A DNA stretch of 64,000 nt, taken from the NCBI RefSeq assembly GCF_056746865.1, contig NZ_CM163382.1. The stretch is one strand, 5' to 3'. Both the position numbers and the translations under genes were made by a program. Of this stretch, positions 5,363 to 44,419 are shown one piece after another (the first letter of the stretch is position 1; the number at the start of each line of letters is the position of its first letter). A model generated the notes under the pieces. That model was given only the letters and a program-made list of their open reading frames with translations, was not told the DNA's origin and searched no databases.

Positions 5363-6139
5363 TTACATAGGGATGGTCCAGAGGTTGTAGAAACCGATCC
5401 GACCAACCAGTTCAGCAGCAATAACCACCAGTGCAGTCATCGCCAGCACAGCTTGCCCACTTTTCATGCGTGCATAGAGCAGTGCCCCAATAACACCCAG
5501 CGCCAACAGAATGGCCTGAGCGGTAAACCAGGTGGACTGCGCAGCGGTAATAACGCCATCAGCACTCATTAGCGTGGAAATATAACCCGGACGCAAACAG
5601 AAACTCGCCAGAATCGCCAGTACACTTACCAGCAGCCCCAGACGACGAACGCCAAACAACGCCGCCAACATGCCGCCACCGATAAGTGCAGTTAGCACCA
5701 TCATCATGGTGGTGTAAGAGGTACTCCAGGTCGCTACCGTTGCCAACTGGTAAATACGCGGGATGGCAAAGATAAACACGACTCCAATCGCAGCGGCCAG
5801 CCATACCAGTACTTTACAAAGCATTGCACCACCGCGATTTAACAGCAAACCGAGAGATCCCAGTCCTCCGGCTGCGGCAAAACATGCCGAAAGCACGATT
5901 TCGTTACTCATAGGAGAACTGCCGACACGGAATAGCATATTCAGCGCTCGCAGCGGCTGCCCGACATGAATGGTGCCAAGCACAACACCCACACCAAACA
6001 AGCACATCACCGAAAAGAGACCAATCGCCATACGACGTGGCTCAATTAATCCCATGGCACCGCCAATCAGCAGCAGAATAAACGCCCCCACTGCGCTCTG
6101 GGTAAATACGGTGAAAAAGACCAGTGGTAACTCATGCAT
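5363..6139 (-). CDS. DMSO reductase-type membrane anchor subunit (DmsC/YnfH-like)
   Basis: Polytopic hydrophobic 258-aa protein immediately downstream of the Fe-S subunit; SD GGGAGG. Confidence 0.7.
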   Translation of the reverse strand: MHELPLVFFTVFTQSAVGAFILLLIGGAMGLIEPRRMAIGLFSVMCLFGVGVVLGTIHVGQPLRALNMLFRVGSSPMSNEIVLSACFAAAGGLGSLGLLLNRGGAMLCKVLVWLAAAIGVVFIFAIPRIYQLATVATWSTSYTTMMMVLTALIGGGMLAALFGVRRLGLLVSVLAILASFCLRPGYISTLMSADGVITAAQSTWFTAQAILLALGVIGALLYARMKSGQAVLAMTALVVIAAELVGRIGFYNLWTIPM

Positions 6140-34156: not shown

Positions 34157-35245
34157 TAGACTGGCCCCCTGAATCTCCAGACAATCAATATCACTTAAAT
34201 AAGTGATAGTCTTAATACTAGTTTCTAGACTAGTCATTGGAGAATAGATGATTGATGTCTTAGGGCCGGAGAAACGCAGACGGCGTACTACACAGGAAAA
34301 GATCGCTATTGTTCAGCAGAGCTTTGAACCGGGAATGACGGTCTCCCTTGTTGCCCGGGGATGGGGAGTAAGCTTAGTCAGCCGTTGTCTCCGGGTGTCG
34401 CGTGCGCAGTTGCACGTCATTCTCAGACGAACCGATGACTGGAAAGATGGTCGCCGCAGCCGTCACTCAGATGATACGGATGTGCTTCTCCGTATACACC
34501 ATGTTATCGGAGAGCTGCCCACGTATGGTTATCGTCGGGTATGGGCGCTGCTTCGCAGACAGGCCGAACTTGATGGTATGCCTGCTATCAATGCCAAACG
34601 TGTTTACCGGATCATGCGCCAGAATGCGCTGTTGCTTGAGCGAAAAACCGCTGTACCGCCATCGAAACGGGCACATACTGGCAAAGTGGCCGTGAAAGAA
34701 AGCAATCAACGATGGTGCTCTGACGGGTTCGAGTTCCGCTGTGATAACGGAGAAAAACTGGGGGTCACGTTCGCGCTGGACTGCTGTGACCGTGAGGCAC
34801 TGCACTGGGCGGTCACTACGGGCGGCTTCGACAGTGAAACAGTACAGGACGTCATGCTGGGAGCGGTGGAACGCCGCTTCGGCAGCGAGCTTCCGACATC
34901 TCCAGTGGAGTGGCTGACGGATAATGGTTCATGCTACCGGGCTAATGAAACACGCCAGTTCGCCCGGATGCTGGGACTTGAACCGAAGAACACGGCGGTG
35001 CGGAGTCCGGAGAGTAACGGCATAGCAGAGAGCTTCGTGAAAACGATAAAGCGTGATTACATCAGTATCATGCCCAAACCAGACGGGTTAACGGCAGCAA
35101 AGAACCTTGCAGAGGCGTTCGAGCATTATAACGAATGGCATCCGCATAGTGCACTGGGTTATCGCTCGCCACGGGAATATCTACGGCAGCGGGCCAGTAA
35201 TGGGTTAAGTGATAACAGGTGTCTGGAAATATAGGGGCAAATCCA
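34157..35245 (+). mobile_element. IS2 deletion derivative (1,089 bp instead of ~1,331 bp)
   Basis: IS2 ends TAGACTGGCCCCCTGAATCTCCAGACAA... and ...CTGGAAATATAGGGGCAAATCCA; internal deletion between two TTGCCCGG repeats. Confidence 0.85.
34248..35234 (+). CDS. IS2 InsC(1-37)::InsD in-frame fusion transposase created by the internal deletion
   Basis: [37 protein letters not shown] joined directly to [21 protein letters not shown]... (InsD). Confidence 0.8.
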
Positions 35246-35440
35246 ATGGCGCAGATACGCTTGCGGATCGATACCATTCAGACAGCAGGTCCGTTCACTA
35301 CCGTAATCGCTGCCGAAGAACACATTGATTGCCCCTCAATAATCCTGCCGTCAACGTCAAAATTGCTGGTCGGGCTCGACTTATTTAATTGTGTAAACAG
35401 GGCCTCTCAGCGAAAGGCCCTTATGCATCACCTGACGTCG

Positions 35441-36007
35441 TTAAAAGTCACTACACCCAAGATGACGTTCAATGGCACCATGCGATTCAATGTAAGCCTG
35501 GGCCGTCTGTTCCAGTACACCAGGCTCAGCGTTGTATGTGTTAGCTGCATCAAATACCAACGACAGCACTTCAGGATACACAACCAGATGTGTAATGGAG
35601 TTATCTTCACCCAATACTTTTCCCCACGCCTGCTCAATCAGATTTCTGAGAGCCACCACCTCACGACTCTTACACCAGACATCGTTATTAAGTAGCAGTA
35701 CCATAAGATAAGGAGTGGTATCGTTAGCCACAGCTTCCCTACTCCAGAGATAATATAAAGGGGCGGGCTCAACAGATTTATCTTTACGTCGCTTGCACTG
35801 CAAATATTCAGAAATTAGTCTATGCAGTTCACCAGTAAAATCAGCCATCAGAGAGGGAATTGCCTTGTTCATACCTGGGCAAGGTATTAATTTAAATTGT
35901 AATAATTTAATTTTAGGATGTGTAGCTGCAGCCCGATACAGAGTTGCAAGGACATACTTTTGCCAGAGGGCGTTACAGGAAAGCTTAACGTTTGATTCTG
36001 TATACAT
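35441..36007 (-). CDS. Hypothetical protein (188 aa), AT-rich island gene
   Basis: ORF followed by a hairpin (35398-35422); no family recognised. Confidence 0.45.
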   Translation of the reverse strand: MYTESNVKLSCNALWQKYVLATLYRAAATHPKIKLLQFKLIPCPGMNKAIPSLMADFTGELHRLISEYLQCKRRKDKSVEPAPLYYLWSREAVANDTTPYLMVLLLNNDVWCKSREVVALRNLIEQAWGKVLGEDNSITHLVVYPEVLSLVFDAANTYNAEPGVLEQTAQAYIESHGAIERHLGCSDF

Positions 36008-36034
36008 AATAAATCACCTTACAGTTACAATAGG

Positions 36035-36649
36035 TCAAAAACCGCTGTAGCCAAAGTTACGCTGGCCTGATGCTTTAGTGTCGAGCTTCGTCAGATAATC
36101 CAGACGTGCCAATAAGCGCTGATATTGCTCAGGGAAATCAGGATCGTTAATATCCAGGATGTAACGTCCATTAGCAGGGAAATGAACTAGTCCCTGGTGA
36201 TCTTCCAGTTCTAACCCTAAGGCACTGTACCAGGCTCCGGTAATTAACCCTCTCAGGGTGTCAGAGCGCTCATAGTCTCCCAGGTGGTAATAGGCGTCTT
36301 TGTTAAAAAAAAGGCAGACGTGATAATGACATTTAAAGGACTGCGTATATTCTTTCGCCCAGATAATACAAACCGACGTTGCGTAGGTGCGTTTGCCTTG
36401 TTGTTTTTTACGGTGTTGATCTGCATTAATTTTCGCATTCAGCGAGTTACGGAAACGAGATATCTCTCCGGGACTCAGGTTAGGAAAACAGGTAATGGTA
36501 TCCCCGTTGTCAATCACGGGAGGATAATGGAGATCCACCCGTATTGCCGTTATTCTGGGATGTTTCTGGAAGAGGTTATTCACCTGGTTTCTTATTTTTA
36601 ACCCGTGAGCCTCATGACATTCACCGTAAAGAGTTTCAATCGTAATCAT
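36035..36649 (-). CDS. YagK/YfjJ-like (inovirus Gp2-type) prophage protein, tentative
   Basis: Size (~204 aa) and position match the yagK/yfjJ genes of CP4-type elements; family call from memory only. Confidence 0.45.
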   Translation of the reverse strand: MITIETLYGECHEAHGLKIRNQVNNLFQKHPRITAIRVDLHYPPVIDNGDTITCFPNLSPGEISRFRNSLNAKINADQHRKKQQGKRTYATSVCIIWAKEYTQSFKCHYHVCLFFNKDAYYHLGDYERSDTLRGLITGAWYSALGLELEDHQGLVHFPANGRYILDINDPDFPEQYQRLLARLDYLTKLDTKASGQRNFGYSGF

Positions 36650-36739
36650 GTTAATATTCCTTTTGCTTTCAGAGATAAGCTAATAGTTAACCTACCCAAT
36701 ACACAACAGAAGCAGATATTAATATTCGTATCAGTAGTT

Positions 36740-36845
36740 CCCAGAGGGATATATAACCCTCTGGGCGTCAATTAAGAAAAACGCTACTGCCTATTGTTAC
36801 ATTAGAGAACAGGATGATGTTACACAGTTACATTAGAACGTTCTA
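36740..36845. promoter_or_regulatory. Iteron/operator-like repeat cluster in a 380-bp AT-rich intergenic region
   Basis: Palindrome CCCAGAGGG-atatataa-CCCTCTGGG (36740-36765); direct repeats GTTACATTAGA(G)AAC at 36796 and 36827; 12-bp palindrome TAGAACGTTCTA (36834-36845). Confidence 0.45.
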
Positions 36846-37030
36846 AAACATTAAACAGAGTTATGATCTACACACAACTAATTATTTGGTATCAGAATAC
36901 CATTAGCTCTATTAGTACATCATATCCATCATTACACATATACTATACATCACAGATATAATATATATTACCTATCCAACGCACATGTATTTATAACTCC
37001 ATTGCCAATAGCTACAAGGACTATAAAATG

Positions 37031-37591
37031 TTACTCTGCAGTTAGATCAACAATACCTTTATCCCAGTGTCTTTTTACAGTGGATAAACTGATGCTTAAT
37101 TTTCTGGCTGTTTGTGACTGACTGAACCCCTGCAATTTCAACTGTCTGATATTTTTACTATGAATACTCCCTTCTTTCCTTCCTGGTTTTCTTTTAATTT
37201 TCCGGATACTGATGTCGGGAATTTTTCCTCTAATATCTGTAGGTAAAATCATCCCGGTGAGTACCACAGGAATATCATCACCATCCGGCAACTCTGATGA
37301 CGTAAAAAAGCAAATATTAATACCTTGTCTGATACTTAAAGATAAAACCTCCTGTATTTTTTCCGGCGTATTACCAAAACAAGTTAACGATTTAGTAATC
37401 AGAATATCACCCCTTTGCATATCCTGCGTCAGGAGTCGAACTAACCGTTTTCTGTCTGCCAGAGTATAATCCGGGCGACCCAATTCGCCTGTTAACTGCA
37501 ATAGTGGTTCTTTAAAATATCTCTGAATCATGGATTTTAAGCGATTAAGTTTTGACCATTTTTCAGAGTCTATGTATGCAAAACTCGCCAT
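37031..37591 (-). CDS. Serine-recombinase (resolvase/invertase) homolog with C-terminal HTH, lacking the catalytic residues
   Basis: Aligns to gamma-delta resolvase (GDILITKSLTCFGN vs GDVILVKKLDRLGR; C-terminal HTH ...QTARKLSISLSTVKRHW) but YARVST is replaced by YIDSEK and DR..R by TC..N. Confidence 0.6.
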   Translation of the reverse strand: MASFAYIDSEKWSKLNRLKSMIQRYFKEPLLQLTGELGRPDYTLADRKRLVRLLTQDMQRGDILITKSLTCFGNTPEKIQEVLSLSIRQGINICFFTSSELPDGDDIPVVLTGMILPTDIRGKIPDISIRKIKRKPGRKEGSIHSKNIRQLKLQGFSQSQTARKLSISLSTVKRHWDKGIVDLTAE

Positions 37592-37812
37592 AATGCCTCA
37601 AACTGGTGTCATGAATTAATTATTGAACCTGTTTTTTCCTGAGTCGCATTACTCTTTTCTAAGGGAGGCTCTCCAGATACATCGGAAAAGTACTCGATAA
37701 AAGAGTTGGCCACTCCCGGGTAATGATTGCTCTCTTTAACCTCAGAAAGCGGTTTCTGTTCATCATTTACACCACGATTTCTGGGTTATGAATAAATCTA
37801 CGCGGGCCATAA

Positions 37813-38559
37813 TCATTCATCTTCAAATGGGTTAATAATAATAACATCTCCACCTGTTCTGGAACTTTGTGAAACTTCCTCTGTTCTCAGAACAGGCACT
37901 ATTACAGCCTTATTATTGATATAAAAAATCGGAATATGAAAAGTACAAAATCCTGTACTACGAATCTGATGTCGCCTCACTGTTTCTTTCGTACCATACT
38001 CAATCAACTCATCTATCGGCAGGCAAACTGAATTGCAAAAGTCAAAAAAATAATCCCCAAAAACACTGGTTTTAATCAGAATGGTTTTATAAAACCCTCC
38101 TGCACGATTCAGGGTATGGGAAACTTTTCTGTTCGTGTAAATACAAATTGCCTTCTCAACTTTATAATATTCCAGCATTAAGGTCGCATTCTCTTTAATT
38201 CCCTTTTTCTCTGCAACTCCCATAGCATTTCTGGTGCTTTCATGAGGAAATATCTTTCTATCGAGAACATCATATTCATATTTGATATGCGATTTATAAA
38301 TGCTATGAAAAAACTCTCCTTTTGTTATTTCAGGCTTTGTCCGTTGCACAAATGGTTCCTCATTAAAAAACTGACGTAGCTTATCCTCTATATCAGTTAT
38401 AGCAGCAATATTTTCATTTATCCTGTTTAAAACAGGAGCCCCTAGCTTTAAACACTCTTTAATCGCTGCTGAAAATGAGCATTTTTTTAAATGCTGATAC
38501 TTTTTAATTACATCAGCTTCATATGTTTCTGCAAGAGAGAAAGAGACACGTTTCATCAT
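37813..38559 (-). CDS. Hypothetical protein with N-terminal ribbon-helix-helix-like domain (248 aa)
   Basis: N-terminus MMKRVSFSLAETYEADVIKKYQHLKKCSFSAAIKECLKLG has the beta-strand/helix pattern of RHH (CopG/Arc) domains; the remainder is unassigned. Confidence 0.45.
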   Translation of the reverse strand: MMKRVSFSLAETYEADVIKKYQHLKKCSFSAAIKECLKLGAPVLNRINENIAAITDIEDKLRQFFNEEPFVQRTKPEITKGEFFHSIYKSHIKYEYDVLDRKIFPHESTRNAMGVAEKKGIKENATLMLEYYKVEKAICIYTNRKVSHTLNRAGGFYKTILIKTSVFGDYFFDFCNSVCLPIDELIEYGTKETVRRHQIRSTGFCTFHIPIFYINNKAVIVPVLRTEEVSQSSRTGGDVIIINPFEDE

Positions 38560-38621
38560 GAAACTCCTTTTTAATTATAAAATTAAAATATAGAAATATA
38601 TATTATTCTGATACTATAAGG

Positions 38622-38849
38622 TTAATACTGACTAATCCACCACAATAGATCACTTAATAACCACCCACAGGATTTCTTTCCAATAGTTTTACGTGGCGGG
38701 AATTTTCCTTCACGTTCCAGTTTCCAGGCTTGTGAACGAGAAATAGACGTAATTTTCTGGCGTTCCTTTTCTCGTACCAGTCTGTCACAGGTGTATCCAT
38801 AGATCTTCAAAATTGATAAACGGTTCTCATCTCTTAACGGCTTCCACAT
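38622..38849 (-). CDS. AlpA-family prophage transcriptional regulator
   Basis: ...ITSISRSQAWKLEREGKFPPRKTIGKKSCGWLLSDLLWWI matches the AlpA pattern (SRSTIYRL..GKFP.P.KLG.RSV.W...V..WI). Confidence 0.65.
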   Translation of the reverse strand: MWKPLRDENRLSILKIYGYTCDRLVREKERQKITSISRSQAWKLEREGKFPPRKTIGKKSCGWLLSDLLWWISQY

Positions 38850-39628
38850 ATTGCTCTCCTTATATATTCATGATTTTCAGATTGTATATGCATGTGAGCT
38901 GCTCAAATCACTACATCTATCTGTAGTGGTATGCTGTTGAACAGCACCAGCAACTCACGAGCAAAACAATACATTTGCACAACCAAGAAATCAAATTGCG
39001 AGAAATGATTTAATTAACTGACTTCTAATAACACAATAACAACAAAGAAAGTCACAATATAAAAATAACTTAAACAATGCTTTTTGGTATACAAAATAAA
39101 AATCAAAATCACAATATTCGTAGGTTATTTTATGCAGACAAAAACAAAAAAAATCTTGTTATAATCTATGATATCAAGAGGAGGGGTAGTGACCAAAAAT
39201 TCTCCCCAGAAAAGCCCCCACAACATTAGTTTGAAAACGTGACGAAGTTCACAAAATTATCTTCTGGCGATAATAGAACTTGTAAGAGGGAGTTGATTTT
39301 TGCCAACTTTCTAAAGCTAAAGTGCAGACAAAAGATAATAATTGAATGAAAACGATACATATTTTCAGATGAAAGTGACGTGACTGTAGAGGGCTATAAC
39401 CGTAAAATCATTTGCGTCCTGAGCAATATGCAACAAAAGGGAATGCTCGTAAAAAAATCAGGAATAAACGCTAAGGATATCGTATTAGATTCAGCATCGT
39501 ATAATGCCACTGCATAACTGATTCCCATTTCGTAGAGGCTGTTAACTCTGTATCAATGTCCTGACAAAGGACTGTATCAAGTTTCTCTACTGGAAACAGC
39601 TATGCAATAGACGGAAGAATTTAACATT

Positions 39629-41233
39629 ATGGTAACTAAAAAGGTAAAAACAAACCACCCGTACTATCGTGTTTTATCCGGCACCTCCATGCCGTTTCCC
39701 CACATACATGAAGCTGTTTCCGAACAGTTGCTTCTACTCATTTTCAAAGCACGCAGATTGTATCTGGATCCAGAATATCGTCCTTGGTTTGATGAACAAC
39801 ATCGGATTCTCTCGGCATTACGCGCTAACACAAAACTCCAAAGTATTTTAGAGAAAAACAGAGAGAACTACTCCATAAGTGAGACCGATAATCCACTATC
39901 TAAAGATCTGTATGCTGCTTTTCAGGTTATGTGCCATTTATACAATGGTTTTGATAACAGACTCGTCAGCCTGAAAACCTGGGGAGATATGAACAGGGAA
40001 CCAACAGCAAAATTTGTCGGCCAAAATAGTGGTGGCTGGAAAACACCTGAGATGGAAGAATTCGTCAGAAACGATTTGTTCAATATTCTGACAGATTGTA
40101 AAGCTCATTGCTCACCACTTCCCGCTCTGGTTCGACAAGGATATTGCCATCAGGATCTTTCTGTTGCGCACTCATGTACTAAAGAATTACTGGAACAACT
40201 GAACCGATACCATCAAATTGATGAATCAGCGATACTTGCCAGAACCCTTGGTTTGGCTATTAACAACTGCTATCACTCAGAAACAGAGATTCCTGAATGG
40301 CTTTCTCCTTTTGAAAATGAATACAAAAGTCCCTGGAATTGTGAGAAACCAGATACTAACGATGTGAGTAAACTTAGAAAACAATTGCTAACAATCGGGC
40401 GTACAGAATTCGTGGACAAAATGTTTTCGCTAGCCAACAAAAATGCAACAAAGATAATATATGATGGATACGTTAAACTTTATGCTCTGGAAATATATGA
40501 ATGGTTAAATAAATTAGTGCAATATTTTAAAGGAAATGATTTTATTCGTTACACCTGGAAGTTCACAACAATTATTTCCGATGAAAGTGACACGATTGAA
40601 AACACCACCGCATGGGAAAAAGACTATTGTCAAATCACTATACAGCGTGATGAACTTCTGAAACTGATTTATACCAATACCCTGCAGGATGCAGCAATGA
40701 ATCTTGCTGATTGCCTGCAACAGGCATACACAGAACCGTTAAAAATGGAAATAAATTATCCAGGAATAAACATTGATGCAAAAGAGCGTAAAATTAGAAA
40801 ATCTATTGAATTCAGGAGCGAACTGAATAACTTCACAAACATCATGAAACAACTGGAAATATTTGAAAAATGGTATAACGCCAATAAAATTCTGTTGGTA
40901 AGTAACAAAAAGATACGTACAGAAAAGATTGACGTGAATATTCGTCTTGCAGGACTAAAAGGCTATGATCTGAATGAAGGTATACCTGATGGTCAGGGAC
41001 GCAGAATTAAAGATGGTGTAAATGAACTTGTCAAGGCAGATGGCAGTCTACAACTTCCACAAGATATCAGTGACACTTCGCTTAACCGTTACCGTCAAGC
41101 AGTTCAACACATTATTAAGGATGAGATCGACACGTTGCTGATAGCACAGAGGGAAAAAAATAAAATAAATCCATATAGCGAAGATAGATACTCGATACGA
41201 CCTTTATGGGGAAAATGTCTGGTCGAACAGTAA
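39629..41233 (+). CDS. Hypothetical protein (534 aa), AT-rich, in the integrase-proximal cargo slot; function unknown
   Basis: Long ORF with SD GGAAG upstream; no recognisable catalytic motifs apart from a possible R-x4-H (RQAVQH) near the C-terminus. Confidence 0.6.
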   Translation: MVTKKVKTNHPYYRVLSGTSMPFPHIHEAVSEQLLLLIFKARRLYLDPEYRPWFDEQHRILSALRANTKLQSILEKNRENYSISETDNPLSKDLYAAFQVMCHLYNGFDNRLVSLKTWGDMNREPTAKFVGQNSGGWKTPEMEEFVRNDLFNILTDCKAHCSPLPALVRQGYCHQDLSVAHSCTKELLEQLNRYHQIDESAILARTLGLAINNCYHSETEIPEWLSPFENEYKSPWNCEKPDTNDVSKLRKQLLTIGRTEFVDKMFSLANKNATKIIYDGYVKLYALEIYEWLNKLVQYFKGNDFIRYTWKFTTIISDESDTIENTTAWEKDYCQITIQRDELLKLIYTNTLQDAAMNLADCLQQAYTEPLKMEINYPGINIDAKERKIRKSIEFRSELNNFTNIMKQLEIFEKWYNANKILLVSNKKIRTEKIDVNIRLAGLKGYDLNEGIPDGQGRRIKDGVNELVKADGSLQLPQDISDTSLNRYRQAVQHIIKDEIDTLLIAQREKNKINPYSEDRYSIRPLWGKCLVEQ

Positions 41234-41315
41234 CTCACTGAGAAAGGGGATAGCAGTTCGCTATCCCCAAAGGAGACTTTCCAGCAAGATCTCAAAAAAT
41301 GAGACACTCAGCAAA

Positions 41316-41942
41316 TTATGCGGCTTTACCATTAACAGATTCAGCCACAAGAACGACAGCGTGTCTGTTTCGCTCAGGATGTTCACTCCAGATTTCTGAT
41401 TCCGGGATGCTTTTCCCGTCATAACTGATCCGTTCGCCATCAAACGGGTAATACCGTGCGGAATCAGTATCTAAAATAAACACCTTCAGATTCGTTGAAC
41501 GACGCGCAATATGCTGCCAGAGAGCTTTACCTCCTTCATATTGCTCGTTATCACTTAATAGTACAACGCCCGCTTTTGTGACTATCGTTTCATAAACAAA
41601 CGTTGCAAGACCAACATCACGTACAGCGCCATCGACAACAATCCCTTCAATCTGAGCAACATCCTGTTCTTCCCAGAATTTCTGGACAAACACGCCTTCA
41701 AGCCGGGGACGACGCTGAAGCTCCAGAGTGGCAACAACCTTATGGCGAACATCACCATCAATAACAGAAGGTGCAGCTTCGATTACCGCAGCAAACGGAG
41801 TCTTTGGATCCCAGATGATCTGGTAAAGCACGCCCTGAATAGTTACTCCATCCAGTATCGAAAAACGACGAGCTACAGTAGCAGGGGAGTAAGACATTGG
41901 AATTACAGCCATTTTTGAATCCCCTCTGAGTAATACCGGCAC
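41316..41942 (-). CDS. Hypothetical protein (198-208 aa); GTG start at 41942 or ATG at 41912
   Basis: ORF convergent with the 534-aa gene; both candidate starts have an SD; no family recognised. Confidence 0.5.
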   Translation of the reverse strand: MPVLLRGDSKMAVIPMSYSPATVARRFSILDGVTIQGVLYQIIWDPKTPFAAVIEAAPSVIDGDVRHKVVATLELQRRPRLEGVFVQKFWEEQDVAQIEGIVVDGAVRDVGLATFVYETIVTKAGVVLLSDNEQYEGGKALWQHIARRSTNLKVFILDTDSARYYPFDGERISYDGKSIPESEIWSEHPERNRHAVVLVAESVNGKAA

Positions 41943-42041
41943 GAAAATTTACCTCAATAATTATAGTAAACAATACAAGAACCAAGTGCATCAACAATAC
42001 CCATCAATTGTACACAATTCGTACAGCAACCAGGAACTCCC

Positions 42042-43358
42042 TCACCTTCTGCCAAACAGATTGACAACATTATTGCCTGTTTGCTGTTGATAGTTATTAA
42101 CCCGGTCCTCCCAGATCTCAAGTGCTCTGCGTTTTTCTGGCAAATAATCGTATCGATCATAATGTTTTGAACTGACATCGTTCAACGCATGATTTTGAAT
42201 ACGATCGCGGATTTCCTTACTGATCCCAGCTTCTCCCATTAACGTTTTACAGGTCCGACGTAAGTCACGTGCTGTAAAAATTTTAAAGTCAGGATTAAAA
42301 GCCCGGAAATACATGATAGCGCGAGCCAGACTGTCCGTACGAACCGGACGCTTACCATTAGTCGAAAGTGGAAAAATGTAAGGGCTGGATTTTTCTTTTG
42401 TTAACTCCTGCACACAGGATAATTCCTGTAATGCTGATTCAGTCAACGGTATCAAATGCTCTCGTTTATTTTTAGAGACATCAGCAGTCACCAGCAGCGT
42501 TTTTTGTTGAAAATCAACATCACACCACTGACTGGCGATCATTTCGAAAGGACGTTGCCCTCCGGTATAGATACAGAATCGGATCAAATGTTGCATCAAT
42601 AATCCAACGTTGGTTGCTTCAGCAAAATGTTCCATTAGAAAACGCAACTCTTCAAGTGTCAGCCAGGTATCACCGACTTTTTCAGCAGATGACTGTTTCG
42701 GTATCACTGACACCGGATTTGCCTCCAGCCCAAAAGTAATCCCTACACTTGTGTTCATCGGATCGTTATCTGCTTTCAGTCCATAGTTAAATGCAGCCAT
42801 CAGGTAAGAACGGATCCGGTTAGAGTGAACCACAGCACCGCGCTGAATGATCCCGGCCAGGATATGTTTAATCTGTCCGGAAGTCACATCTTTAGCTTTA
42901 GTTTCACGGGGGATCACTGTATAGCATTCATTTTCAAGGCGTTTCAGAACATCCTGCCATGTCCTCTTATTATCAATTTTCATTTTGTTAACATAACCAT
43001 GAATCAATGCTTCAAATGAGCCCTGTGATTGATGGAGTTGTATCCGCTGCTGTTCTGCAAACTGTTGTCGTTCCAGTTCTGCCTGGGGATCCTTTCCTTC
43101 AATGAGCCAGGCACCATACTTTTTTGTCAGTTCATTCGCTGTGGCCAGTTTCATCTCAGGCCATATACCCAATTGAATGAATCTTTCTTTTTTCCCTTTT
43201 TCCACGTAATAGCGGAAATAGAAAATCTTGCTGCCAGAAGGCTGAACTTTGACACCAAGTCGTCCAGTGCCACGTTGAGAGCTGTTGCTCCAGACATAGA
43301 ACGATGTCTTTTTTGCTTTCAATGCTCGGATGGCTGTTTCAGTAAGATTGACGGCCAT
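42042..43358 (-). CDS. int: P4-type tyrosine integrase
   Basis: 438-aa protein with N-terminal arm-binding domain (KIFYFRYY...) and C-terminal tyrosine-recombinase domain; adjacent to the tRNA-derived attachment core. Confidence 0.85.
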   Translation of the reverse strand: MAVNLTETAIRALKAKKTSFYVWSNSSQRGTGRLGVKVQPSGSKIFYFRYYVEKGKKERFIQLGIWPEMKLATANELTKKYGAWLIEGKDPQAELERQQFAEQQRIQLHQSQGSFEALIHGYVNKMKIDNKRTWQDVLKRLENECYTVIPRETKAKDVTSGQIKHILAGIIQRGAVVHSNRIRSYLMAAFNYGLKADNDPMNTSVGITFGLEANPVSVIPKQSSAEKVGDTWLTLEELRFLMEHFAEATNVGLLMQHLIRFCIYTGGQRPFEMIASQWCDVDFQQKTLLVTADVSKNKREHLIPLTESALQELSCVQELTKEKSSPYIFPLSTNGKRPVRTDSLARAIMYFRAFNPDFKIFTARDLRRTCKTLMGEAGISKEIRDRIQNHALNDVSSKHYDRYDYLPEKRRALEIWEDRVNNYQQQTGNNVVNLFGRR

Positions 43359-43405
43359 AGAACCTCTTTTCTAAACCAGTAACAATCAGAATAACTCGTG
43401 ATTTT

Positions 43406-43428
43406 GGGTCAGGTAATGGGTCAGGTAA
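43406..43428. repeat. Tandem direct repeats GGGTCAGGTAA x2 between integrase and the att core (candidate integrase arm sites)
   Basis: Two 11-bp copies separated by 1 bp, located 48 bp upstream of the integrase start. Confidence 0.5.
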
Positions 43429-43554
43429 CGATCGTACAATGAAGAAAAAACGGAACCAAGCGGAGACAGGGAAAATCACATAATTTATTGATTACAAACA
43501 ACTAATAAAGCAATCACGAACAAACAAAAACAATATAGAACGAACTTGCCTCAT

Positions 43555-43601
43555 GACTCATAATCGCTTGGTCGCTGGTTCAAGTCCAGCAGGGGCCACC
43601 A
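43555..43601 (+). other. ileX: 3' 47 nt of tRNA-Ile(CAU) (ileX-type): island/backbone junction (att core); the 5' part of the tRNA is absent here
   Basis: GACTCATAATCGCTTGGTCGCTGGTTCAAGTCCAGCAGGGGCCACCA matches the remembered 3' portion of E. coli tRNA-Ile2 from the anticodon loop to CCA; sequence upstream does not match the tRNA. Confidence 0.7.
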
Positions 43602-43610
43602 GATATAGCA

Positions 43611-43645
43611 AAGGCTGACGAGAAATCGTCAGCCTTTTTCTTTTT
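43611..43645 (+). terminator. Rho-independent terminator (native ileX terminator)
   Basis: Hairpin AAGGCTGACG-agaaat-CGTCAGCCTT followed by TTTTTCTTTTT. Confidence 0.75.
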
Positions 43646-43654
43646 ATATATCAG

Positions 43655-44419
43655 TTACTTTGCGTGCCAGTAAGCCGCTGCACGTACCCGCTGTGGATCA
43701 TACTGTTCCGCTTCAAAGCGGCGGCTTAAATTCTTAACGACTTTGCCTTCGCCGGTTATCCAGATGAAGTAATCATCGGCAGGGATTTGCATCTGCGCCA
43801 GACGCGCATCTACCGCCTGCTCATCATGTGCCAGCCATTCGATATTAAAACCATCAAGGTGCGCGAGATAATCCTGACAGGCGTGATCCCGCACGCTAAC
43901 CAGCGCGCTAACTTGCGGTTTAACAGCAAGTTTGCTCAACGTTTCCAGGCGGCGGCGCAGTGCGGGCATTCCGGATTCATCGCAGACATACAGCTGATAC
44001 GCGTAATCCTCTGGCATCACCAGCGAACCGCGCGGACCTGCCACCGTGAGTTTATCGCCCGGTTGCGCCTGCATTGCCCAGCTGCTGGCGACGCCACCTT
44101 CGTGAATAAAGAAATCAATCGCCAGTTCATGGCGTAGTTCGTCATACAGCGGCGTATAGTCACGCGACGGTGGGCGTGGTCCTTCCGGCCAGACGATGCC
44201 CTCTTCCGTTACCGTTGGCGGCACAAAGTGAGCATCAGATTGAGGAAAGAAGAGTTTGCTGTGATCGTCAAAGCCGCGCGATGTAAAACCGTCCAGCGCC
44301 TCGCCGCCAAGGACAATGCGCTGAAAACCGGCGCTAATACGCTCAGCGCGTAGCACAGTCAGTTCACGGAAGCGCAGATCATTGCGAACGCGCTGCGGGT
44401 AGCGGGGGGAGTTATTCAT
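43655..44419 (-). CDS. yqjH: Siderophore-interacting protein / NADPH-dependent ferric chelate reductase
   Basis: 254-aa protein matching remembered E. coli K-12 YqjH; conserved position after ileX. Confidence 0.9.
   Translation of the reverse strand: MNNSPRYPQRVRNDLRFRELTVLRAERISAGFQRIVLGGEALDGFTSRGFDDHSKLFFPQSDAHFVPPTVTEEGIVWPEGPRPPSRDYTPLYDELRHELAIDFFIHEGGVASSWAMQAQPGDKLTVAGPRGSLVMPEDYAYQLYVCDESGMPALRRRLETLSKLAVKPQVSALVSVRDHACQDYLAHLDGFNIEWLAHDEQAVDARLAQMQIPADDYFIWITGEGKVVKNLSRRFEAEQYDPQRVRAAAYWHAK

Follow-up and report, generated by a model that had tools for sequence, protein, structure and literature searches.

A hairpin-rich spacer upstream of a predicted HUH nuclease gene in an Escherichia coli genomic island and its possible role as a leader RNA

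Genes at the locus

The sequence analyzed here, a stretch of 64,000 nucleotides (nt) from contig NZ_CM163382.1 of NCBI RefSeq assembly GCF_056746865.1 (referred to at its full length as the window), carries an Escherichia coli genomic island that adjoins nfeF/yqjH and is annotated in identical form in strain APEC O2-211. The island backbone is encoded entirely on the minus strand and consists of a tyrosine integrase gene (42042-43358), an AlpA-family regulator gene (38622-38849), a gene for a 248-amino acid (aa) protein with no assigned function, located between the AlpA gene and the next, a gene for a 186-aa YagL-like protein (37031-37591), a spacer, a YagK/YfjJ-family gene annotated as "inovirus Gp2 family" (36035-36649; Pfam PF11726, E = 4e-55) and a second, diverged YagK-like paralog (35441-36007; Pfam match at 6.6e-10). 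The subject of this report is the spacer, which lies 5′ of the minus-strand YagK-like gene, and the cluster of short repeats within it (36740-36845), for which a preliminary description had proposed a protein-binding function.

The flanking genes are as that description gave them, including its naming of the 186-aa gene as a degenerate resolvase, a label that is reasonable given homology to YagL and a missing catalytic N terminus. The sole family match of the 186-aa protein is the resolvase-type helix-turn-helix (HTH) domain HTH_7, with no match to the Resolvase domain; it is 36% identical to YagL of E. coli K-12, in an alignment that starts only at residue 43. K-12 YagL itself gives a sub-threshold Resolvase match that covers profile positions 50-141 only, so that model positions 1-49, the catalytic N terminus, are missing. 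The ribbon-helix-helix protein that had been placed near the cluster was confirmed by no tool. The second YagK-like paralog begins 27 bp downstream of the first and reads PYLMV where the family has CHYHV (our own reading against the family alignment, as no tool aligned the two). It thus appears to have lost the HxH motif and may be an inactive, DNA-binding partner.

The YagK-like protein as a predicted HUH nuclease

Family alignment and fold comparison gave the product of the first YagK-like gene a predicted HUH fold with invariant HxH and YxxK motifs, by which it resembles HUH nucleases of rolling-circle Rep type. The spacer therefore adjoins a predicted HUH nuclease gene with both an HUH motif and a catalytic tyrosine, as expected of a rolling-circle origin. 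Sequence matches to characterized initiators were weak: one to the Rep_ORF2/G2P family, with similarity to gene II protein marginal (PF23343, E = 2.6e-4, below the family cut-off), and one to a microvirus replication initiator, which is the only phage-side signal for the family. A search of the Protein Data Bank with a sequence profile returned no informative match, and fold comparison alone was informative. In the searchable literature, no mechanistic function was found for the YagK/YfjJ family and nuclease activity is likewise not reported. "Inovirus Gp2-like" proteins are among the likely core genes of integrase/AlpA islands of Pseudomonas that are transduced by jumbo phage (PMC12595487). 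Small plasmid or phage genomes with a family member as their only Rep were not seen; copies on plasmids occur in large ones, and in two of the three examined the family member is adjoined by AlpA.

Sequence features of the cluster

The spacer (36650-37030) is 381 bp long with 32.5% GC, in agreement with the AT-rich interval of about 380 bp first noted. A GC-rich stem-loop (36740-36765) is formed by perfect 9-bp inverted repeats, CCCAGAGGG (36740-36748) and CCCTCTGGG (36757-36765), read directly from the sequence, and its AT loop, ATATATAA (36749-36756), is 8 nt long, where 7-8 nt had been given. The pair of direct repeats was also found as claimed, with GTTACATTAGA starting at 36796 and again, 31 bp away, at 36827. 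The full units are GTTACATTAGAGAAC for copy 1 (36796-36810) and GTTACATTAGAAC for copy 2 (36827-36839), and in addition to these a partial third copy, GTTACA, lies at 36819-36824. Copy 2 is overlapped by the palindrome TTAGAACGTTCTAA (36833-36846), which is present and perfect as reported; its length is 14 bp rather than the 12 bp claimed.

To estimate chance expectations, the spacer was shuffled 1000 times with its dinucleotides preserved. Perfect hairpins of 9 bp or more arose in 3.5% of shuffles, direct repeats of 11 bp or more within 60 bp in 1.8%, and palindromes of 12 bp or more in 19%; two or more of these three feature types arose together in 0.9%. In the 64-kb window the hairpin pattern is found a single time, against an expected number of 0. 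The features of the cluster are thus real and jointly improbable by chance, and the palindrome alone is unremarkable.

A one-mismatch copy of the 15-bp repeat unit, GTTCCATTAGAAAAC, lies on the plus strand within the integrase gene (42629-42643); by a rough estimate, about 0.01-0.03 one-mismatch matches to a 15-mer are expected by chance in 64 kb. A 41-codon open reading frame on the minus strand (36646-36771) has a TTG start just before the hairpin and a TGA stop that overlaps the ATG of the yagK-like gene (ATGA); it has no obvious ribosome-binding site and is probably spurious.

A conserved pair of boxes upstream of the gene family

For comparison, 42 loci were taken from other species and a further 15 from predictions on viral contigs. 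Many of these share the gene order AlpA, 248-aa homolog, YagL homolog and YagK homolog, and the spacer between the YagL and YagK homologs measured 194-506 bp in 18 of 19 loci. Two short motifs, Box A (consensus CTAAYTNCAGAGTRA) and Box B (consensus TGTWGGAWAGGTAWTATA), were found ahead of nearly all family members, across about 50 loci of many genera and at protein identities down to about 47%. Both are in the orientation of the gene, with starts separated by 63-65 bp (usually 64) at nearly every locus, and they are kept even where the upstream gene differs. Box pairs were recorded in the window and in loci L006-L047, L050, L051 and L053-L066, with one pair per 8-10-kb locus; no extra copies of either box, as possible termination sites, were present in the window or in these loci.

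In the window, Box A (CTAACTGCAGAGTAAC; 37030-37045, minus strand) lies 64 bp upstream of Box B and overlaps the last codons of the 186-aa gene, a position that in most other loci is just past the stop codon of the upstream gene. Box B (GTTGGATAGGTAATATA; 36964-36980, minus strand) is conserved family-wide and resembles the -10 region of a promoter. Both boxes fall outside the coordinates given in the preliminary description; the reported cluster is situated between Box B and the ATG, in the variable leader, with about 120-230 bp separating it from Box B. Across clades this leader, measured from Box B to the ATG, is 84-332 nt long, and that of the window is the longest.

The spacer between yagL and yagK of K-12 carries the same two boxes at the same spacing. 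In genomic systematic evolution of ligands by exponential enrichment (SELEX), an RpoD promoter, TTTAGA-16-TATAAT, together with H-NS binding was assigned to this spacer (PMC3946193), and the hexamer pair of that promoter coincides with Box B. Of the Rho-dependent terminators measured in E. coli, those upstream of yagM and yagL rank with the strongest (PMC9160355). In the window, a slippage-prone tract (36937-36968) lies just downstream of Box B and contains (CAGATAC)n in 1-5 copies, an (AT)n run of variable length that is inside the -10-like tract, and a 14-bp duplication, seen in strain XD35. These variants could change promoter or leader geometry. No description of the module, or of the long-range helices reported below, was found in the searchable literature, which excludes most papers in subscription journals.

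Predicted folding of the leader

A stretch of 411 nt (36640-37050) was folded on both strands with RNA and DNA parameters and compared with shuffled sequences. The sense RNA folded at -108.7 kcal/mol (z = -3.49), a value equaled by 0 of 100 shuffles, and the antisense RNA at -68.9 kcal/mol (z = -0.91), so that the leader is both more stable than its shuffles and strand-specific, as a structured leader should be. With DNA parameters the sense strand gave -37.0 kcal/mol (z = -2.6) and the antisense strand -32.2 kcal/mol (z = -1.9).

In the sense RNA fold the GC hairpin had a pair probability of about 1, and its stem was kept in RNA and DNA folds of both strands. In the minimum-free-energy folds it is surrounded by a predicted three-way junction (36732-36789, minus strand), in which CAGTAG (36789-36784) pairs with CTACTG (36737-36732) and a small CGTT/GACG helix is formed. 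Adjacent to it, a long imperfect hairpin is predicted on the sense strand (36790-36859, minus strand), with repeat copy 1 as the pairing partner of the palindrome's left half. For the 300 nt that precede the ATG, the mean z over 38 family loci was -2.5 on the sense strand and -1.75 on the antisense strand. Box B was tried as the 5′ arm of a conserved hairpin and was rejected in that role, its best downstream pairing being no better than that of shuffles (mean z about -0.2).

Distribution and variation of the cluster

The spacer was searched with distant BLAST settings against E. coli genomes, and the same island was found in 259 of 5426, with nothing more diverged. Among these 259 carriers the cluster occupies one place per genome, at most two. 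A phage collection gave no match and a plasmid collection only CP101363.1, which was rejected as an episome, as it is a linear 11.7-kb contig with aer, nfeR and nfeF and hence a chromosomal fragment. When the spacer was compared by BLAST with the 42 fetched loci, the coding regions and the Box A area aligned and the cluster did not. Comparable direct repeats were absent from nearly all leaders of about 30 homologous loci of other genera, and none of 15 family loci on viral contigs of 18-80 kb had a leader like that of the window. Hairpins upstream of the gene are a recurrent feature of the family and the direct repeats are not.

The protein database contained no YagK-like relative between 64% and 98% identity, and intermediate relatives are probably absent from current data. 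Three candidates for such an intermediate were set aside: the copy in E. albertii (L028) is rearranged upstream of about codon 23, P0069 carries a CP4-6-type copy, and the P0115 contig begins within the gene.

Variation within E. coli was assessed from 10 haplotypes aligned across the spacer and both flanking genes. The spacer has 20 single-nucleotide polymorphism (SNP) sites in 381 bp and four events of insertion, deletion or change in repeat number, and each of the flanking genes has 10 SNP sites, over 615 bp in one and 561 bp in the other. Five of the 10 haplotypes have a broken palindrome, through 36842 T>A in three and 36843 C>T in two, and four of these five retain an intact yagK-like gene. 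Repeat copy 1 is invariant; copy 2 is altered by 36829 T>C in a single haplotype (strain ETEC1722). Conservation of the repeats across homologous islands had been offered as a check on a binding function, and the outcome is unfavorable, as homologous islands are without them and the palindrome is not fixed even within the lineage.

The stems of the GC hairpin are invariant in all 10 haplotypes, although the chance of 18 invariant nt at this divergence is about 0.4 by our own calculation and is not significant. In one haplotype the loop ATATATAA is replaced by its exact reverse complement, TTATATAT, with the stems unchanged, a change of the flip-flop inversion type; the flipped loop was present in nine of the 259 genomes. 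In strain EC17CM13 (L005) the alignment to the window stops just after the GTTACAT of repeat copy 1 (36802), a pseudogene for an IS3-family transposase is annotated about 10 bp farther on, and no yagL-like gene is annotated in the stretch; this looks like an insertion sequence (IS) that removed the rest of the spacer.

A long-range helix in other clades

In two other clades of the family, a helix of 30-40 bp encloses Box B, with the sequence between the two boxes (CAGTCATCRCAGGCTG...) paired to a segment that precedes the ATG by 20-55 nt. These are the K-12-type clade (L006-L012, L021, L023-L026 and L050, the last being yagL-yagK of K-12 itself) and a short-leader clade that includes Siccibacter, Dickeya, Pectobacterium and others (L030-L047). 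The helix had z scores of -3 to -6 against shuffles in both clades, and was missing from the lineage of the window (z = +0.5). Its variable positions, in both clades, change almost only to G·U on the sense strand, and mostly on one side of the pair; a single-stranded, sense-strand structure is therefore indicated in both. Because the helix includes sequence upstream of Box B, its formation needs a read-through RNA or single-stranded DNA. In one locus of this set (L039), a match to RNA-OUT, the antisense RNA of IS10, was found downstream of the Providencia YagK homolog (5467-5536, 91 bits); it belongs to an IS10-type element and is unrelated.

Interpretation of the cluster

The explanation that we tentatively prefer, held with less than even confidence, is that the cluster is a lineage-specific part of the hairpin-rich leader of an HUH nuclease gene, transcribed from the Box B region and acting as RNA. 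The leader would be an untranslated segment of about 330 nt between the Box A/B module and the start codon of the YagK/YfjJ-family gene, with the cluster as its middle part. Transcription would begin at or near Box B, as judged from the K-12 ortholog. The RNA would fold on the sense strand, with the GC stem-loop (36740-36765) placed within the three-way junction and the direct repeats and palindrome building the longer imperfect hairpin, and these structures might set the stability, processing or translation of the nuclease mRNA in an island silenced by H-NS and Rho. Of this proposal, the features themselves, their position and orientation, the family-wide boxes, the excess of sense-strand folding and the HUH-like fold with its motifs were observed, and the transcription start site, the action as RNA and the effect on expression are inferred. 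A leader that varies in length from 84 to 332 nt is more readily expected of a modular hairpin set than of protein sites with fixed geometry, and the restriction of the cluster to a single E. coli lineage and its polymorphism were likewise counted in favor of a leader RNA. Within the leader the GC stem-loop would be the only robust element; local duplication and slippage in a tract under weak constraint probably gave rise to the direct repeats and palindrome, which would then not be iterons bound by a protein.

Several results weigh against a leader RNA. The rate of evolution of the spacer is about threefold that of the flanking genes, and the cluster is no better conserved than the remaining spacer. 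A simple promoter scan of the spacer returned no minus-strand promoter, and the -35 equivalent of the window allele is poor. Both palindrome polymorphisms also disrupt pairs of the predicted hairpin at 36790-36859, which may be without function, and the hairpins leave the ribosome-binding site unoccluded. An RNA started at Box B could not form the long-range helix of the K-12-type and short-leader clades, a point that favors read-through RNA or single-stranded DNA in those clades.

A different explanation, possible if on balance doubtful, makes the spacer a DNA target for the HUH nuclease, as an origin from which the excised island replicates by rolling circle or is transferred. Box A/B would then be the conserved nick or binding core, and the sense-strand hairpins, the GC stem-loop among them, would serve recognition or, in the manner of a single-strand origin, priming on the displaced strand. 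In its favor are the predicted fold, the invariant HxH and YxxK motifs and the weak matches to Rep_ORF2/G2P and to the microvirus initiator. An active HUH enzyme needs a site in cis, and Box A/B was the sole repeated non-coding motif identified beside the gene across the family, no systematic scan for others having been made. The long helices that enclose Box B in two clades are explained more easily by single-stranded DNA, the sense strand folds better than its shuffles with DNA parameters as well, and the occurrence of the GC-hairpin loop in both orientations indicates an inverted repeat that is active at the DNA level, although ordinary template switching could explain the flip. Against a DNA target, nick sites are normally conserved within a Rep family, whereas the hairpin and repeats are lineage-specific; the boxes, for their part, are conserved family-wide but also promoter-like. 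Each box is present once per locus with no second, terminator-like copy, pairing downstream of Box B is at chance level, the window clade does not have the long-range helix, and neither a family member as sole Rep of a small replicon nor a report of nuclease activity was encountered in the genomes and the searchable literature covered above. Rather unlikely, in our estimate, is the broader proposal that spacers of the yagL-yagK type are replication or transfer origins of a widespread class of integrase/AlpA islands that includes CP4-6 of K-12, with YagK/YfjJ proteins nicking the sense strand at Box A/B and the hairpins providing recognition or priming.

The cluster could also be functionless, a weakly constrained AT-rich spacer in which slippage, small duplications and template switching have left repeats. 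We regard this as unlikely: it accords with a cluster that is private to one lineage, in the fastest-evolving part of the locus, beside a variable-number heptamer repeat, an (AT)n run, a 14-bp duplication and a loop inversion, and with the modest surprise that the invariant hairpin stems present, but it does not account for the joint improbability of the repeats, for the strength and strand asymmetry of the sense fold or for the recurrence of hairpin-rich leaders in independent clades of the family. Very unlikely is the proposal that the direct repeats and palindrome are a double-stranded operator or iterons for the 186-aa, 248-aa, AlpA or YagK-paralog protein. HTH proteins are encoded directly upstream, the half-site TTAGA(G)AAC occurs three times, two of these forming the perfect 14-bp palindrome in a manner typical of dimeric HTH proteins, and a near-copy of the 15-mer lies in the integrase gene. 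These observations are set against a palindrome that is of a kind found in 19% of shuffles and is lost in half of the haplotypes, mostly beside an intact gene, a mutated repeat copy 2 and homologous islands with no equivalent repeats. The full copies also number just two, spaced by 31 bp, and the promoter-like box is located far upstream of them.

What stands of the proposed protein-binding locus is accordingly a cis-acting non-coding region beside genes for DNA-binding and DNA-processing proteins; its repeats as operator or iterons do not, and an operator in particular is disfavored by a palindrome that lies about 120 bp downstream of Box B and is broken so often. The suggestion of a replication origin survives in part, as the HUH-like neighbor keeps an origin or nuclease target alive, especially at the GC hairpin, and fails for iterons, which were rejected on two copies of 11-15 bp spaced 31 bp apart, one 6-bp fragment and a neighbor of the HUH type. 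A recombination site, also suggested, is unlikely with a 186-aa protein that matches HTH_7 only, and a res or inversion site for a serine recombinase was rejected because no recognizable catalytically competent recombinase is adjacent. Three further candidates were excluded: an intrinsic terminator (no terminator-like site on either strand in 36000-39700, and no T run after the stem on either strand), a dispersed repeat such as a repetitive extragenic palindrome, bacterial interspersed mosaic element or miniature inverted-repeat transposable element (single copy in the window, at most two per genome), and a known RNA family (no relevant Rfam 15 match up to E = 1 in window positions 35000-44000 and four homologous loci).

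Comparison with known systems

In the Ff filamentous phages, a hairpin-rich intergenic region upstream of gene II holds the origins of replication. The spacer resembles this region and the origins of rolling-circle plasmids in being a non-coding region of a few hundred bases before an HUH/Rep-like gene, with hairpins that fold best on the sense strand and with a conserved core (Box A/B) beside lineage-specific structures. It differs in that the element is a chromosomal integrase/AlpA island rather than a small replicon and in the marginal sequence similarity of its protein to true gene II proteins.

The closest counterpart is yagL-yagK of CP4-6 in K-12, which has the same order of HTH-family regulator, protein with no assigned function, YagL-like gene, spacer and YagK-like gene, and the same boxes, and which binds RNA polymerase and H-NS in genomic SELEX (PMC3946193). 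The K-12 leader is about 200 nt long, is unrelated in sequence after Box B and has none of the reported repeats; it also has the 30-40-bp helix enclosing Box B, which the window lineage does not. The spacer in the window is a diverged variant of the K-12 spacer.

An iteron origin has at least three tandem direct repeats of about 17-22 bp, with regular helical spacing, and a cognate iteron-binding initiator. The cluster is similar to such origins, as found in plasmids and phage-inducible chromosomal islands, in having short direct repeats in an AT-rich region near a putative replication gene on an integrase/AlpA island, and differs in having two non-conserved copies of 11-15 bp next to an HUH-type protein rather than an iteron-binding initiator.

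In Enterobacterales, many integrase/AlpA islands have YagK/YfjJ genes in their core, and the combination of an HUH-like protein, strictly spaced boxes and a sense-biased, hairpin-rich leader makes the family experimentally approachable and raises the question of whether excised islands replicate or transfer by a rolling-circle route. If the spacer were an origin, an inovirus-like intergenic region would lie within chromosomal islands, and elements regarded as cryptic prophages would be rolling-circle replicons or satellites. The reported cluster itself holds modest interest, and tests would best be directed at the conserved boxes and the GC hairpin.

Extent and cargo of the island

The island extends over about 20000-43400 of the window, in which no tRNA gene was found. 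Its cargo includes an alpha-galactosidase, a glycoside hydrolase family 32 enzyme, a major facilitator superfamily transporter and a carbohydrate porin, and remnants of IS3, IS1414 and a group II intron are also present. Other carriers have the same backbone with different cargo, for example haemolysin/two-partner secretion genes in the O111 strain 8D.

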